Of a DNA stretch of 57,206 bases, positions 3,360 through 34,184 are shown piece after piece. The stretch lies in contig MHUV01000002.1 of NCBI GenBank assembly GCA_001823545.1, positions 1 through 57,206 on the forward strand, in the 5' to 3' direction. Under the pieces are notes generated by a model. It was not told where the DNA came from, ran no database searches, and saw only the letters and a program-made list of their open reading frames with translations. The DNA comes from Candidatus Yonathbacteria bacterium RIFCSPLOWO2_01_FULL_43_27. GTDB lineage: Bacteria; Patescibacteriota; Minisyncoccia; Phycocordibacterales; UBA1550. The position numbers were made by a program, and so were the translations under genes. Positions within the stretch are counted from its first letter, which is position 1. The number at the start of each line of letters is the position of its first letter.

Positions 3360-4631
3360 ATGACAACTATCGTTCAAAAATTAAAACTTATTATCGGAGA
3401 CGCAACGCTCAGAAACCGAGTACTTTTTGTTCTTGGTGCGCTTGTTATTTTCCGCTTTTTTGCGAACATCCCAATTCCAGCTGCGCTCGGACAAAATCTC
3501 ACTGCACTCATTTCTCAGAATCAGGCACTTGGCTTCCTTAATCTTTTGACAGGAGGTGGCCTTTCTGCTGTTTCTCTCGTAATGCTTGGTGTTGGCCCCT
3601 ACATTACCGCATCGATTATTATGCAACTTCTTACGATGATGTCGCCAAAATTTAAGGCGATGCACAGTGAGGAAGGGGAATTGGGTCGTCGTAAGTTTAC
3701 TCAATATTCACGTTTACTTTCCGTTCCGCTTGCTATTACCCAAGGGTATGGACTTCTTGCGTACTTGAGCAGTCAGGGTATCCTTCCTGCACTCACACCA
3801 CTTGATTACTTAATCAATGTCTCGATCGTTGTAGGAGGTTCACTTTTCCTTATGTGGATAGGCGAGCTTATATCAGAGTTCGGTATTGGAAACGGTGTTT
3901 CACTGATTATCTTTGCAGGTATCATTGCACAACTCCCTACCACATTAGGACAACTTGTTTTTACGTTTGATGTGTCACAGATTCCTTTATACTTCGGCGC
4001 TCTTGTCGCTATTCTTTTAATTGTGCTCGCGGTGGTGTATATAACCGAAGCAGAGCGTCCGGTTCCTGTTACCTATGCAAAACAGTCGCGTGGGGGAAGA
4101 ACCACTGCTGGTGGAACAACATATCTTCCACTTCGTGTTAATCAGGCAGGCGTTATCCCTATCATCTTTGCGCTTTCAATACTCATTTTCCCTAACGTTA
4201 TTGCAAATGCGCTTGCTTCACTCGGAAATGAATCAGTGCAAGTTATTGCAACGTTTATTAAAGATGCACTCGCAAATATTTGGGTAAATGGCATTTTGTA
4301 CTTTGTCCTTGTTTTCATCTTTACGTATTTCTATACCGCTATCACCTTTGACCCTGACGCAATCGCTACCAACCTTCAAAAGAATGGCGCGTTTGTACCG
4401 GGTATTCGTCCTGGAACACATACTTCAGAATACCTTGCAAGGATTTTGACACGCCTCACACTCGTAGGTGCTGTATTCCTTGGTATCATTGCGGTGTTGC
4501 CACTCATTATGCAGGAGGTTACTAACGTGCAATCGCTTGCAGTTGGTGGTACAGGACTTCTCATCGTGGTGTCGGTAATCCTCGAACTCGTAAAGAAAGT
4601 GGATGCTCAGGTTTCAATGAGAGAATACTAA
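3360..4631 (+). CDS. secY: Preprotein translocase subunit SecY
   Basis: A 423-aa polytopic membrane protein with SecY motifs (LGQNLTALISQNQALGFLNLLTGGGLS...GVGPYITASIIMQLL), sited after L15. Confidence 0.95.
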   Translation: MTTIVQKLKLIIGDATLRNRVLFVLGALVIFRFFANIPIPAALGQNLTALISQNQALGFLNLLTGGGLSAVSLVMLGVGPYITASIIMQLLTMMSPKFKAMHSEEGELGRRKFTQYSRLLSVPLAITQGYGLLAYLSSQGILPALTPLDYLINVSIVVGGSLFLMWIGELISEFGIGNGVSLIIFAGIIAQLPTTLGQLVFTFDVSQIPLYFGALVAILLIVLAVVYITEAERPVPVTYAKQSRGGRTTAGGTTYLPLRVNQAGVIPIIFALSILIFPNVIANALASLGNESVQVIATFIKDALANIWVNGILYFVLVFIFTYFYTAITFDPDAIATNLQKNGAFVPGIRPGTHTSEYLARILTRLTLVGAVFLGIIAVLPLIMQEVTNVQSLAVGGTGLLIVVSVILELVKKVDAQVSMREY

Positions 4632-4926: not shown

Positions 4927-4980
4927 TATATAACCCTAACGTATAAAATGCTATAGCATTTTATACGTTAGGGTTATATA
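4927..4980. repeat. 54-bp perfect palindrome in the secY-adk spacer
   Basis: TATATAACCCTAACGTATAAAATGC TATA GCATTTTATACGTTAGGGTTATATA was checked base by base and equals its own reverse complement. Confidence 0.9.
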
Positions 4981-9887: not shown

Positions 9888-10193
9888 ATATTGTATTTGT
9901 ATTGAAGAGGGAAGCGTGTCTATTTTTGTGCCGAGGAGAGGACTCGGTCAAGCGCTCGCTCGTCGTCACCACGTTTTTCGCTCTCTCCCTACAGGAGCAG
10001 TACACCTTTTGGCTCTTTTGTTTCGCCTGCTCACAAAACAGCTTAAAAGGTCTTGCGGAAGCTCCACGTATTCGCTTCCTTACCTGCTTGTGCGACCCAT
10101 CGAGCACGACGGGTACCCGCACTCGCTTTCGAGTCCTCTCCTCCGCCTACAAAATTTAGTTACGAAAAGCTACCACTTTTCGTTTCCAATTTT

Positions 10194-10236
10194 GTGCCGA
10201 GGAGAGGACTCGAACCTCCACAGGTTACCCCTTCCT
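10194..10236 (-). pseudogene. Orphan 3' portion of a Leu-type tRNA (variable arm, T-arm and acceptor 3' strand) with no contiguous 5' half
   Basis: The reverse complement reads ...GGGGTAACCTGTG-GAGGTTCGAGTCCTCT-CCTCGGC-A. It is nearly identical to the 3' part of tRNA-Leu(UAG). No matching GCCGAGG acceptor strand or valid anticodon stem lies in the adjoining 5' sequence. Confidence 0.5.
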
Positions 10237-10343
10237 AATGCCTGTTTCGCGTACGCTCAACAACGGCATTTGCGCATACGCGCACCGGATGAAAATCAAA
10301 GCAGTTTGATTTTCATTCCCGCGTCAGTTCGTCACGCGCAAAG

Positions 10344-10437: not shown

Positions 10438-10467
10438 ACTTGCGTCTACCAATTTCGCCACCTCGGC
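10438..10467 (-). pseudogene. Orphan 5' portion of a Leu-type tRNA (acceptor 5' strand and D-arm only)
   Basis: The reverse complement reads GCCGAGG-TG-GCGAAATTGGTAGACGCAAG. The D-arm is identical over 21 nt to tRNA-Leu(UAG), then the sequences diverge. Its acceptor GCCGAGG is exactly complementary to the CCTCGGC of the 3' fragment at 10194-10236. Confidence 0.5.
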
Positions 10468-10957
10468 TTCTTCATAACAACTTACACTAAATAACAAGAA
10501 AAAGCGAGTTTTGAGATTGATCTGAATCTCGTTTAGTGACGTTTGTGGTCACAGATAATTTCCTCGCCGTCGCTCGGAAATTTCGCAGTCACAACTTTTT
10601 GCTCGACCGCCGTCTCGCAAAAGTCGCGACCCCTCCTCACTCGTTTTTCTTGCTAGAAAAACGAGTTCCGGCCTTGCGAAGCTCCATGTATTCGCTTCTC
10701 ACCTGGCTCGCTGTTTTGTTTTGCTAAACAAAACATGCTTCGCCTTGCACAAACTAAAAATCTGCCGCAGGCGCTGTTTTTCTTTACGTTTGAATTGCTA
10801 TTTTTGTGGTCACAAGTCACTAAGTCTACTCGTGCGAGTACGCACTGCGTGGACGTAAGTGCTCGCGACCCCGGCTCGTGGTTTTGTGTGCTCACAAAAC
10901 ATCACTGCGCCTTGCACAATGAGAAAATGGTGCGCAGGCACCATTTTCTTTTCATTG

Positions 10958-11030
10958 TGCACCCACCTGGACTCGAACCAGGGACCATCTCCTTAAGAGG
11001 GAGTTGCTCTACCAACTGAGCTATGGATGC
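10958..11030 (-). tRNA. tRNA-Lys (anticodon CUU)
   Basis: The reverse complement reads GCATCCA-TA-GCTCAGTTGGTAGAGC-A-ACTCC[CTCTTAA]GGAGA-TGGTC-CCTGGTTCGAGTCCAGG-TGGGTGC-A. The acceptor has one G-U pair. The anticodon stem has an A-A mismatch at 27-43. Confidence 0.7.
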
Positions 11031-11142: not shown

Positions 11143-11205
11143 TCCGTATTAGCTCCTCGGCTCGGAAGTGAGAAAGATTACTTTCTCACTTCACTCGCTC
11201 TACGT
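11143..11205 (+). repeat. Dispersed roughly 60-nt repeat (family A), copy 1; it contains the hairpin GTGAGAAAG-atta-CTTTCTCAC
   Basis: GTATTAGCTCCTCGGCTCGGAAGTGAGAAAGATTACTTTCTCACTTCACTCGCTCTACGT. A near-identical inverted copy lies at 20281-20340. Confidence 0.8.
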
Positions 11206-11243
11206 CGCTAATAATATTGCTCGTAGTTCCTGATTTGTTTAGT

Positions 11244-11326: not shown

Positions 11327-11803
11327 TTAGGATTTTTTCTTTCGATTAAGTCCTCGATGCGTTGGTTTTAAACTGTGGCAATTTGGACAAAGAATCCGAA
11401 GATTCTCTATTCTGTTGTCTGTTCTGTCCCCATTTATATGGTCAAGCTCAACTGGGATTCTACCATCAATCGACTTTTTCGCCCAGCCACATTCTTCGCA
11501 TTGTGAATTTTTTAAATTATCTTTGAAGAGTCGTCGTTTCAGCTTGTAGCTTTGGAAACGGCTATCTCTCGTAAGGATCTTATTGAGAGGTATGAGTGGC
11601 TTACCGATTCCCTTTAGTCCTTTACTCCATCCAATGCCAGTAAAGTGTTTAATATCCAGACCGTAATCTTTGACGGCATTGTTAATTTGCGCATAATTTC
11701 CTCCTGCCTCTTTTAGATTGAGTTTTTTGAGAACTTGCCGTACGCTTGTAGAGTTTTTAACAGCGACCCTCAATTGTTCTTCTGTCCAACTTCGTTTCCT
11801 CAT
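11327..11803 (-). CDS. HNH endonuclease (homing-endonuclease-like), free-standing within the tRNA island
   Basis: C-terminal ELDHINGDRTDNRIENLRILCPNCH is the classic HNH core, with an additional CEECGW zinc-finger pair. The N-terminal region (WTEEQLRVAVKNSTSVRQVLKKLNL...GGNY) looks like a small DNA-binding module. The start is placed at MRKRSW. The stop lies 3 nt from the tRNA-Leu(UAA) 3' end. Confidence 0.85.
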   Translation of the reverse strand: MRKRSWTEEQLRVAVKNSTSVRQVLKKLNLKEAGGNYAQINNAVKDYGLDIKHFTGIGWSKGLKGIGKPLIPLNKILTRDSRFQSYKLKRRLFKDNLKNSQCEECGWAKKSIDGRIPVELDHINGDRTDNRIENLRILCPNCHSLKPTHRGLNRKKKS

Positions 11804-11914
11804 GCATAAAAGTATACCATAATGGAAGGCATAGAGGAATACATGTACATAGTTGCCTACCTTTTTAATTAAGAAACTCAATTATATTGCAATTCTTTCT
11901 TGAGGCGTGGGCTC

Positions 11915-11980
11915 CTCTCGGTCACGAGTTACTAAGTGTGCTCGGGCGACTACGCCCTGTGCGCACTAAGTACTCTCGAC
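11915..11980 (+). repeat. Dispersed roughly 65-nt repeat (family R), copy 2
   Basis: GTCACGAGTTACTAAGTGTGCTCGGGCGACTACGCCCTGTGCGCACTAAGTACTCTCGACCCGGGCTCG. Its reverse complement recurs at 20641-20705 with a few substitutions. A diverged copy lies at 10806-10877. Confidence 0.8.
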
Positions 11981-12085
11981 CCGGGCTCGCTGTCGCTTTG
12001 CGACATGCTCCGCCTTTCGATTCTCGACGCAGGCAAAGCAGTTTGCCTGCTCCCACGCCAAGAAAATTCTCTAAGAATTTTCTTG

Positions 12086-12157
12086 AGGCGTGGGCGAGAA
12101 TCGAACTCGCGCATAGGGGATTTGCAGTCCCCCGCCTTACCACTTGGCCACCACGCC
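12086..12157 (-). tRNA. tRNA-Cys (anticodon GCA)
   Basis: The reverse complement reads GGCGTGG-TG-GCCAAGTGGTAAGGC-G-GGGGA[CTGCAAA]TCCCC-TATGC-GCGAGTTCGATTCTCGC-CCACGCC-T. The discriminator U73 is the Cys identity element. Confidence 0.85.
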
Positions 12158-20273: not shown

Positions 20274-20280
20274 ATTAGCG

Positions 20281-20340
20281 ACGTAGGACGAGTGGAGTGA
20301 GAAAGTAATCTTTCTCACTCCTGAGTCGAGGAGCTAATAC
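20281..20340 (-). repeat. Family A repeat, copy 2 (inverted), about 95 nt upstream of tRNA-Tyr
   Basis: The reverse complement of 20281-20340 matches 11143-11205 at roughly 90% identity, including the GTGAGAAAG/CTTTCTCAC hairpin. Confidence 0.8.
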
Positions 20341-20435: not shown

Positions 20436-20519
20436 GCGTAGGTGGTAGAGCGGTCAATTACAACAGACTGTAAATCTGTCGCCCATTGGGCTACGCAGGT
20501 TCAAATCCTGCCCTACGCA
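20436..20519 (+). tRNA. tRNA-Tyr (anticodon GUA), type II
   Basis: GCGTAGG-TG-GTAGAGCGGTCAATTAC-A-ACAGA[CTGTAAA]TCTGT-CGCCCATTGGGCT-ACGCAGGTTCAAATCCTGC-CCTACGC-A. Confidence 0.85.
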
Positions 20520-20567
20520 CAATACAAAAAACGCCCCTCAAGGGGCGTTTTTTGTATTGTGCGTAGG
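20512..20567. terminator. Terminator hairpin embedded in a 56-nt perfect palindrome that includes the tRNA-Tyr 3' acceptor strand
   Basis: CCTACGCACAATACAAAAAACGCCCC-tcaa-GGGGCGTTTTTTGTATTGTGCGTAGG. The core hairpin plus T-run is at 20526-20553. Confidence 0.75.
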
Positions 20568-20640
20568 AGCGACTGAACTGCTTCAGTCGCGTGCAGGATT
20601 TGAAAGGCGGAACATGTTTTTGTAATCAAAAACAGTGAGC

Positions 20641-20705
20641 CGGGGTCGCGAGTACTTAGTGCGCGCAGGGCGTACCCGCCCGAGCACACTTAGTAACTCG
20701 TGACA
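20641..20705 (-). repeat. Family R repeat, copy 3 (inverted relative to copy 2)
   Basis: CCGGGGTCGCGAGTACTTAGTGCGCGCAGGGCGTACCCGCCCGAGCACACTTAGTAACTCGTGAC equals the reverse complement of 11915-11980 with a few substitutions. Confidence 0.8.
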
Positions 20706-20770
20706 AAATCCTACGCACAAAATCTTACCCCACAAAGCGAATGCTTTGCGGGGTAAGATTTTTGTAGCGT

Positions 20771-20801
20771 AACAAAAAACGCCCCTTAAAGGGGCGTTTT
20801 T
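20771..20801. terminator. Bidirectional rho-independent terminator (RNase J and the tRNA-Tyr-side element)
   Basis: AAAAAACGCCCC-ttaaa-GGGGCGTTTTT. It is a near copy of the hairpin at 20526-20553. Confidence 0.75.
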
Positions 20802-20818
20802 ATATACACGAGAATCTT

Positions 20819-34113: not shown

Positions 34114-34127
34114 AGAACGTTAGTGAG

Positions 34128-34179
34128 CTACAAACATAAAAGCGAGAATTCGTTAGAATTCTCGCTTTTATGTTTGTAG
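34128..34179. terminator. Long perfect-palindrome bidirectional terminator between the pilin array and tmk
   Basis: CTACAAACATAAAAGCGAGAATTC-gtta-GAATTCTCGCTTTTATGTTTGTAG (24-bp arms). Confidence 0.8.
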
Positions 34180-34184
34180 CGTCA

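Follow-up and report, generated by a model that had tools for sequence, protein, structure and literature searches.

The dispersed repeat R is one hairpin, H3, of a structured RNA module of 150-230 nt that is joined to tRNA 3' ends at many loci in Patescibacteria. These bacteria, whose genomes are tiny, account for a large part of bacterial diversity, and their RNA biology is poorly understood. The element is outside every known family, and its architecture is without a described counterpart. Judged from sequence, the module may regulate how tRNAs mature, or it may represent a novel class of insertion element directed at tRNAs. A conserved, multi-copy RNA wired to individual tRNAs would be new whichever reading holds, either as a control or processing layer of tRNA maturation or as a DNA route for targeting tRNA genes.

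The window, the whole stretch of 57,206 nt that was analysed, is bacterial chromosome, carrying the genes for IF-2, RbfA, ClpB, RNase J, and GyrA (Pfam/NCBIfam profiles, 8 window ORFs). R was originally described as a dispersed family of 65-nt repeats, and all three of its copies were recovered, at 10806-10877, 11915-11980, and 20641-20705. A 17-mer, GTCACGAGTTACTAAGT, searched with up to 3 mismatches, matches 10809-10825 and 11921-11937 on the plus strand and 20688-20704 on the minus strand, against a shuffle expectation of 0.03. The repeat finder pairs the Cys and Tyr copies as two 73-nt arms that are 92% complementary (11921-11993 and 20632-20704). The placement is fixed, as had been proposed: R lies downstream of, and on the same strand as, tRNA-Lys, tRNA-Cys, and tRNA-Tyr (ARAGORN, Rfam). 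The same long imperfect hairpin, also anticipated, forms in each of the three copies (z = -3.6 to -4.5). In the diverged Lys copy, GGGCG/CGCCC has become GUGCG/CGCAC, and these two-sided changes preserve the fold. GGGCG/CGCCC indeed belongs to a hairpin, but rather than its core it is merely the tip of an apical extension of H3. This extension is present in the window lineage and in L059, whose apical stem covaries with that of the window; most members have a short apex instead, GAGCGAAGCGA. The ACTAAGT "direct repeats" reported within R are the two strands of one helix segment, mutually paired around a U.U mismatch. The 65-nt unit size was likewise too small, since R is only one hairpin of the larger module.

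The membership of R in a dispersed family has been borne out, with dozens of covarying homologues in other Patescibacteria genomes. Thus, the copies in the window are not the only ones, nor is their similarity limited to terminator-like hairpins, two outcomes that would have undone the original proposal. R was also correctly set apart from CRISPR. Its copies are single, 1-9 kb apart, and one of them is inverted; there are no direct repeats at regular spacing with unique spacers, and the tandem units that do occur are whole modules of about 170-220 nt. The preliminary description further suggested a mobile element, a tRNA-processing or termination signal, or an sRNA. These broad categories are right, but none is specific, and R itself is no terminator: H3 lacks a T-run and lies 80-120 nt past the tRNA, and a terminator scan made no call on the tRNA strand at R, its sole call being a 6-bp stem on the opposite strand (10863-10881). 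The terminator-like hairpin of the module is the apex of P1, a part separate from R. What had been missed is the anatomy of the module, in which three helices are flanked by an antisense and a sense copy of the 3' end of the neighbouring tRNA.

On the tRNA strand, the parts of the module follow in the order P1, H1, anti-T arm, core junction, H2, H3, and sense copy. P1 is formed by the tRNA acceptor 3' strand and trailer, paired with an antisense copy downstream. In the guide arm, Watson-Crick complementarity to the module's own tRNA extends from T54 past the discriminator into the trailer, and H1 (consensus AGCAAGCNAACUGCUUNGCUUGCGU) splits this arm at the T-stem/acceptor boundary. There follows a highly conserved three-way junction, GAAAGGCGGARCAUG-H2-AGYGAGCC-GGGG-H3-GACC, and then the 3' sense copy, which repeats the tRNA from C56 to a few nt beyond the tRNA end.

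The Cys module displays each of these parts. tRNA-Cys(GCA) is encoded on the minus strand at 12085-12157 (ARAGORN, Rfam), and the module arms copy its final ~20 nt (T54 to U73) together with the trailer. P1 (12052-12093, minus strand) pairs the acceptor 3' strand and trailer (CCCACGCC-U-CAAGAAAAUUCU) with the anti-trailer and anti-acceptor segments (AGAAUUUUCUUG-GCGUGGG). The H1 hairpin, AGCAGGCAAACUGCUUUGCCUGCG (12028-12051, minus strand), stands between the anti-acceptor and anti-T arms, and all 9 of its pairs covary. The anti-T arm, CGAGAAUCGAA (12016-12026, minus strand), complements the tRNA exactly over positions 54-64, the T-loop and T-stem 3' strand. The junction AAGGCGGAGCAUG, H2, and AGCGAGCC (11984-12016, minus strand) contain a GGC/GCC helix, a GGA/GA internal loop, and a covarying R:Y pair. 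H3, which is R, occupies 11920-11982 (minus strand) and bears the GC-rich apical extension. The 3' sense copy or "decoy", GCCCACGCCUCAAGAAA (11896-11912, minus strand), reproduces the tRNA-Cys 3' end and trailer and is a 17-nt exact direct repeat of 12079-12095.

The Tyr module, on the plus strand, is built alike. tRNA-Tyr(GUA) (20436-20520; ARAGORN, Rfam) runs into a P1 (20512-20567) that is a perfect 27-bp hairpin of tRNA 3' end, terminator-like apex, and anti-trailer plus anti-acceptor (UGCGUAGG). H1 (20568-20592) and the anti-T arm GCAGGAUUUGAA (20593-20604) lead to the junction AAGGCGGAACAUG, H2, and AGUGAGCC (20604-20641) and then to H3, again R (20645-20704; repeat finder, pattern match, and fold). 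The 3' sense copy, AAAAUCCU-ACGCACAA (20705-20721), is degenerate, having a 5-nt deletion relative to the tRNA.

Two units stand in tandem behind tRNA-Lys(CUU), all on the minus strand (tRNA at 10957-11030; ARAGORN, Rfam). Lys module 1 (10785-10962; covariance-model match of 55.5 bits, and fold) is of a short-arm type: its guide is just UUGUGCA plus anti-trailer, it has no H1, its sense copy has shrunk to CACAAAAAU, and its H3 is the diverged R copy (10808-10871). Lys module 2 (10564-10775) has the core AAGGCGAAGCAUG at 10734-10746, an H2 of type B, and two additional hairpins between GAGCC and H3. The covariance model places its matches in the window at 11897-12066, 20553-20724, and 10785-10962, and detects an additional diverged copy, the fourth, at 10564-10714. 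The trailer of tRNA-Leu(UAG) (9930-10342, minus strand) holds a related mosaic, in which the core is of a third type. It includes an unbroken antisense arm, GGAGGAGAGGACUCGAA, a sense copy starting from C56, and a lone H1-like hairpin at 10292-10313. The window also contains a free-standing HNH homing endonuclease ORF; such genes occur sporadically near modules, for example also in L060.

The arms obey strict rules. The inner antisense block begins exactly at T54 in 17 of 18 distinct first units and spans the T-loop and the T-stem 3' strand, while the outer block spans the acceptor 3' strand, discriminator, and trailer; H1 sits at the 65/66 boundary, within 1 nt either way. Complementarity to the module's own tRNA averages 23.8 nt versus 6.9 nt for other isotypes, and because it reaches into the gene-specific trailer, pairing in cis is implied. 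A decayed tandem tRNA duplicate (pseudogene) would have arms that copy tRNA 5' strands and a T-loop in sense orientation. This origin is excluded because, wherever tRNA stems contain G.U (5/5 cases), the guide complements the 3' strand rather than copying the 5' strand; in addition, the T-loop is antisense (AUUUGAA for UUCAAAU). In L036 the guide complements even the encoded CCA, and the sense copy there reads CAA. Guide and sense copy are both short in the short-arm units. The match of the guide persists despite a decayed sense copy (window Tyr, L023, and L025) or a chimeric one (L002). Overall, 3 of 18 first units (L002, L021, and L023) have a degenerate decoy or none, and other decoys, those of window Tyr and L025 among them, are shortened. 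A conserved G.U at the base of H3 points to function on the tRNA-sense strand. GC-skew was dropped as an argument for the acting strand because local skew tracks gene orientation.

Scanning one genome per species for the exact pattern gave 33 loci. About 14 of these belong to Patescibacteria (Yonath-, Nomura-, and Adlerbacteria, Paceibacterota, and Saccharibacteria), and in all of them the pattern lies 40-90 nt behind a tRNA. The matches outside Patescibacteria are due to chance or, in Acidobacteria, to a conserved protein-coding stretch, with no tRNA nearby; the exact-pattern scans gave no real copy in genomes outside Patescibacteria. A metagenome scan added 14 further real loci. Two exact-pattern scans of viral contigs (IMG/VR) produced 0 matches and 1 chance match in GC-rich coding DNA, and without a real copy in either, a phage origin was rejected.

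Covariation is extensive. The free R and Y positions of the search pattern are Watson-Crick matched in every Patescibacteria match. In an alignment of 12 sequences, pairing holds in 96.2% of cells, and 23 of the 33 consensus pairs are compensatory; shuffled alignments yield 10.6 +/- 1.8 such pairs, with none of 500 attaining 23, and sliding the register yields no more than 9. A covariance model built from this alignment found 47 significant matches within 247 kb of Patescibacteria DNA, and across 32 matches, in an alignment fitted to the model, 30 of 33 pairs show double changes. Wherever the flank is long enough, a match of the model either follows a tRNA on its strand or is a later tandem unit. 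First units start from -12 to +46 nt relative to the tRNA end and are followed by up to three tandem units. Modules are carried by at least 16 tRNA isoacceptors, including intron-containing tRNAs missed by the default mode of ARAGORN. The cores of first units are 85-94% identical whatever the isotype or Patescibacteria class. Core clustering by genome versus by locus, a comparison meant to tell mobility from vertical descent, gives a mixed pattern, with diverged units pairing by locus.

Searches for a known relative were negative. When the window and the compact modules alone were compared with Rfam 15, only tRNAs passed, and nothing credible appeared over the modules at E<=10. Self-cleaving ribozymes, group I and II introns, T-boxes, Y RNA, and IS605/HEARO RNAs were thereby rejected as identities. 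A literature search found no description of such a tRNA-trailing module, and a 2026 preprint on intergenic features does not mention tRNAs.

Predicted folds give the guide two partners. By themselves, the Cys and Tyr modules are multi-branched and closed by the helix between antisense and sense copy (z = -7.4 and -8.3). In the minimum-energy fold of tRNA-Tyr plus module (z = -15), the guide instead captures tRNA positions 54-73 plus trailer, leaving the sense copy to pair with the 5' acceptor strand of the tRNA. At 7 of 7 loci this captured state is favoured over "tRNA alone + module alone" by 5.7-21.2 kcal/mol, energies that leave out tRNA tertiary structure and the order of folding. As for transcription, the Cys module is located within a tRNA polycistron, in L023 about 30 nt ahead of tRNA-Leu, and therefore must be transcribed there. 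Many copies (Tyr, His, Lys, Ser, and Arg) have an intrinsic-terminator-like hairpin between tRNA and guide, and most transcripts may therefore stop ahead of the module. A simple scan predicted no promoter ahead of the modules.

Orthologous sites span genera: clpB-tRNA-Tyr-module is found in four lineages and infB-rbfA-tRNA-Cys-module-tRNA-Leu(UAA) in eight. The Cys site is empty in the relatives L061 and L038, and the filled site of L057 is the empty L061 site with about 165 nt added, bordered by a 16-nt direct repeat, GCCCACGCCTCAAGAA. Exact direct repeats that start from C56 measure 13-33 nt, and repeat length overall varies from 5 to 33 nt. The insert (150-230 bp) has no ORF, and its neighbours are housekeeping genes. 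Among relatives, the H2/H3 type at the Cys site varies while the Cys-specific arms stay constant: the window, L057, and L023 have type A, L059 has an extension variant, and L060 and L004 have type B. Further core types, again with this arm logic, are found in L061, L023, and the Leu(UAG) trailer of the window. DNA-level conversion would keep the arms matched to the tRNA, and cores would be swapped between paralogous modules. No recombinase, transposase, integrase, reverse transcriptase, or nuclease was found to recur beside modules. Likewise, there is no strain-level insertion polymorphism among six contigs of the window population, which are 100% identical across the region.

We tentatively favour, at somewhat less than even odds, a cis-acting two-state RNA on the tRNA precursor, in which capture of the tRNA 3' third would compete with pairing to the module's own decoy. 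This preference follows from two considerations: the core behaves as a functional RNA, and the guide has two exclusive partners. The module would be transcribed within the tRNA precursor or a read-through transcript. In state 1, pairing of the guide with the 3' third of its own tRNA would open the T-arm and acceptor stem, so that 3' maturation is blocked. In state 2, the guide would pair with the downstream decoy, so that the junction closes and the tRNA is left free. Which state prevails would be governed by the conserved junction, probably together with a protein or small ligand bound to it. To judge from the alignments, the core behaves like a functional RNA in its covarying helices, conserved G.U, invariant junction, co-orientation with the tRNA, location in a polycistron, and retention. 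A conserved junction with covarying helices is found together with a strand having mutually exclusive pairings in two competing predicted folds, as in a riboswitch. Further support comes from the maintenance of modules at orthologous sites in very small genomes, and this retention is notable because flanking direct repeats should favour deletion. The unrelated-looking cores with identical arm logic may be likened to varied riboswitch aptamers on one expression platform. Several features nevertheless argue against a switch. Degenerate, lost, or shortened decoys would not be tolerated by a strict two-state switch, and the perfect antisense blocks of 21-25 nt look like DNA-level templating rather than selection for RNA pairing. 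The direct repeat, empty sites (L061 and L038), tandems, chimera, and orphans would be traces of an insertion element. Finally, we know of no precedent for regulation directed back at a tRNA that has already been transcribed. A more specific version, which we consider somewhat unlikely, is that the modules would be a new class of tRNA-programmed cis RNA switches whose junction senses a ligand or protein and gates tRNA folding and maturation. If so, ultra-small CPR bacteria would possess riboswitch-like, gene-by-gene control of tRNA supply, with the core types as different sensors. An alternative of equal novelty would be an insertion element free of protein genes that locates tRNA T-loops by base pairing.

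The insertion traces would fit a miniature, non-autonomous integrative cassette, aimed at tRNA genes and moved through site-specific recombination by a recombinase in trans. Crossover would occur in the T-loop (at the 3' end for short-arm units), as for genomic islands; the element would supply a new tRNA 3' end, and the displaced original would be the downstream copy. The antisense copy would fold the single strand into a duplex recombination site, as in integron attC or CTX-phage attP. Besides the L057/L061 comparison and the likewise empty L038, a cassette fits the tandem arrays, in which the best-conserved unit adjoins the tRNA, the chimera in L002 (a His module with a Ser-type copy), and the orphans L043 and L035. 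T-loop integration at tDNA att sites leaves an identity block from the T-loop past the tRNA 3' end, and the long-arm repeats from C56 past the 3' end are the block expected. Direct-repeat length and guide length also go together, downstream copies behind CCA-encoding tRNAs lack the CCA, and the core identity across classes is compatible with horizontal spread. Nevertheless, we regard the cassette as unlikely. In addition to the absence of a recurring integrase, transposase, or reverse transcriptase and of strain-level polymorphism, it leaves arm specificity unexplained: the same core families bear arms for 16 different tRNAs, and we know of no mechanism that would tailor both the att copy of an element and its complement to each target. 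The "mobile" part is interrupted by H1, which separates one variable arm segment from the other; at one site the core type switches while the site-specific arms stay; and orthologous sites extend across genera. Nor does an att site need a conserved junction with RNA-type covariation and G.U pairs.

The same junction could instead belong to the gene for a stable small RNA expressed by way of the tRNA transcript, with the H2-H3 core released to act in trans, for example as a protein scaffold through tandem G.A-type loops. The arms would then be a processing stem or a tRNA-like acceptor/T minihelix for RNase P, RNase Z, or RNase III. Such processing has known precedents in tRNA-linked snoRNAs and mascRNA. 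The closure of isolated modules by the guide:copy helix (z = -7 to -8), the exit of H1 exactly where the D and anticodon arms leave the acceptor/T stack of a tRNA, and the conservation of junction and loop sequences across classes all agree with this idea. It is, however, quite unlikely, as several conserved copies have lost the closing helix or retain a degenerate one, and with its anti-T-loop pairing the helix exceeds the 12-bp minihelix measured by tRNA-processing enzymes. Moreover, any helix would do, which leaves the exact identity to the neighbouring tRNA and trailer unexplained; many paralogous copies per genome are unusual for a trans-acting RNA, and no partner protein was identified. 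We find it improbable that the modules are a REP/BIME-like mosaic of intergenic hairpins, without specific function beyond extending terminators or stabilising transcripts and generated and homogenised by template switching and gene conversion in tRNA clusters. Reusable hairpins are indeed present (I2, the GAAGCGAAUACRUGGAGCUUC hairpin, H1 alone, and nested insertions), tRNA fragments are frequent within the cluster, and perfect palindromes are typical of template-switch correction. Yet a mosaic would account neither for junctions 80-94% conserved between classes with 30/33 pairs covarying, nor for placement at T54, C56, and the 65/66 boundary, nor for the keeping of modules in genomes under strong reduction.

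Comparison with described systems reveals partial resemblances. Genomic islands and prophages at tDNA (tyrosine integrase, T-loop class) share with the modules an intact tRNA, an insert, and a partial copy from the T-loop to the 3' end, as well as empty and filled alleles and tandem occupancy, and a direct repeat of the tRNA 3' segment does surround the module insert. However, no integrase gene lies inside this insert near the attachment site; the insert is only 150-230 bp with no gene of any kind, and it contains an antisense copy, a covarying three-helix core, and one core family for at least 16 tRNAs. Short, hairpin-rich, multi-copy, non-coding, intergenic elements of mosaic or nested form with direct-repeat flanks recall REP/BIMEs and MITEs. 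Modules differ from these in lying strictly at tRNA 3' ends in one orientation, in having no cognate transposase, in terminal inverted repeats that copy the neighbouring tRNA, and in RNA-type covariation across classes. A MITE was rejected, given terminal inverted segments that differ per site, a repeat of 5-33 nt, and sites that are all tRNA 3' ends. With riboswitches and T-boxes, the module has in common a junction closed by a helix whose guide strand has an exclusive alternative partner; a three-way junction with very conserved nucleotides is also riboswitch-like, and a tRNA-specific programmable segment is T-box-like. Unlike them, it has no Rfam match and lies downstream of its target tRNA rather than upstream of an mRNA, and it pairs with the T-loop, T-stem, and acceptor 3' strand, not with the anticodon or NCCA as a T-box does.

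Group I introns interrupt tRNA genes of Patescibacteria in the anticodon loop, at position 35/36 (PMC13011429). They too are structured RNAs found at tRNA loci in this phylum; their internal guide complements the flanking tRNA, and free-standing homing endonuclease genes occur nearby (PMC13011429). Modules, by contrast, are outside an intact tRNA, have a guide of at least 20 nt versus 4-6 nt, and are about 100 nt shorter than the smallest group I introns. With the upstream tRNA complete, no RF00028 match at E<=10, and a conserved part of only about 100 nt, a group I intron was rejected. Two guides around a conserved hairpin, and G.A-rich loops, are shared with IS110 bridge RNA, TIGR tigRNA, and box C/D and H/ACA RNAs, and TIGR systems occur in CPR bacteria (PMC12045711). 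In contrast to these tandem-guide RNAs (PMC12045711), the module arms pair contiguously with one strand and are longer (8-13 nt each plus trailer), and there are no box C/D motifs or arrays. TIGR-Tas, IS110 bridge RNA, and box C/D RNA were rejected because both arms are antisense to one strand and a partner gene is absent; no Nop-domain or DEDD gene was seen near modules, with Pfam/NCBIfam profiles covering the 8 window ORFs. mascRNA, tRNA-snoRNA genes, and 3'ETS-leuZ also yield a non-coding RNA from a tRNA transcript, with a closing helix that copies the acceptor stem and discriminator. The mimic in the module differs in being a literal copy of the neighbouring tRNA 3' strand paired to its complement, and the module has no T-loop but has a conserved core and many copies per genome.

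The arm rules (antisense from T54, sense from C56, H1 at 65/66) are readable and thus directly testable in vitro, and the module could be useful as a programmable tRNA-binding scaffold. It accounts for long "empty" spacers, tRNA fragments, and spurious ORF calls in CPR tRNA clusters, for the annotation of which the covariance model is now at hand. The window sequence is identical to contig MHUQ01000003.1 of MAG GCA_001825065.1, and the element is also present in Yonathbacteria MAGs of the same deposit series.

Some trailing modules, here called type D, differ from the other modules in their core; copies lie at 4081-4205 and 4416-4575 of locus L061 and at 7616-7800 of L023. In type D, the tRNA 3' end is copied in antisense over 21-22 nt without interruption, and this arm is followed by the core (..AGGC.C.CACCAUUUU...AAAAUGGAU.GUCUCGACCGAAGGAAGAGGCGA), after which comes a sense copy starting from C56.

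Two modules are orphans, lacking an intact tRNA upstream. At L043 (10300-10520; the same as L050), only the final 5 nt of a tRNA-His remain. At L035 (2066-2216), the upstream translation, judged by eye, reads like a fragment of a subtilisin-type peptidase, and the anti-acceptor arm coincides with the final codons of this putative fragment. Other modules directly follow tRNAs whose anticodon loop is interrupted by an intron of about 226-244 nt (L041:1128-1425, minus strand; L011/L040); ARAGORN detects these tRNAs in intron mode only. Such introns fit reports that group I introns are abundant in the tRNAs of Patescibacteria.

In the window, the terminator-like hairpin behind tRNA-Tyr (20524-20557) is present a second time downstream of the module (20772-20805; 82% identical). 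Because this hairpin is duplicated beyond the module, the copy of the tRNA-Tyr end reaches through the original terminator, with an extra hairpin inserted. A second structured repeat family, I2, comprises copies of about 67 nt that are 91% identical; each folds into a hairpin (z = -5 and -6.5) whose internal loops are G/A-rich. Of the two window copies (11146-11212, minus strand; 20274-20340, plus strand), one lies 25 nt downstream of tRNA-Leu(UAA) and the other within the interval between clpB and tRNA-Tyr. A covarying I2 copy is also found at L027 (215-330), nested in the apex of H3, the third hairpin of that module.

The intact tRNA-Leu(UAG) of the window is flanked by duplicated tRNA-Leu pieces, one 5' and two 3' (9928-9965, 10194-10231, and 10440-10467; minus strand). 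The 5' and 3' fragments have in common the acceptor stem GCCGAGG/CCUCGGC, whereas the stem of the intact tRNA is different. The fragments look like parts of an older tRNA-Leu that was split.

In the window, tRNA-Leu(UAA) and the module behind tRNA-Cys are separated by a free-standing HNH endonuclease ORF (11327-11881, minus strand; Pfam HNH_3/HNH). L060 carries an HNH_3 ORF of similar size at the same position (weak Pfam match), and L057, L059, L061, L062, L023, and L004 lack the ORF. Such sporadic occurrence is typical for a homing endonuclease gene. Finally, the intergenic DNA of the window contains two perfect palindromes, one of 27+27 nt without a spacer (4927-4980) and one of 25+25 nt with a 4-nt spacer (34127-34180).
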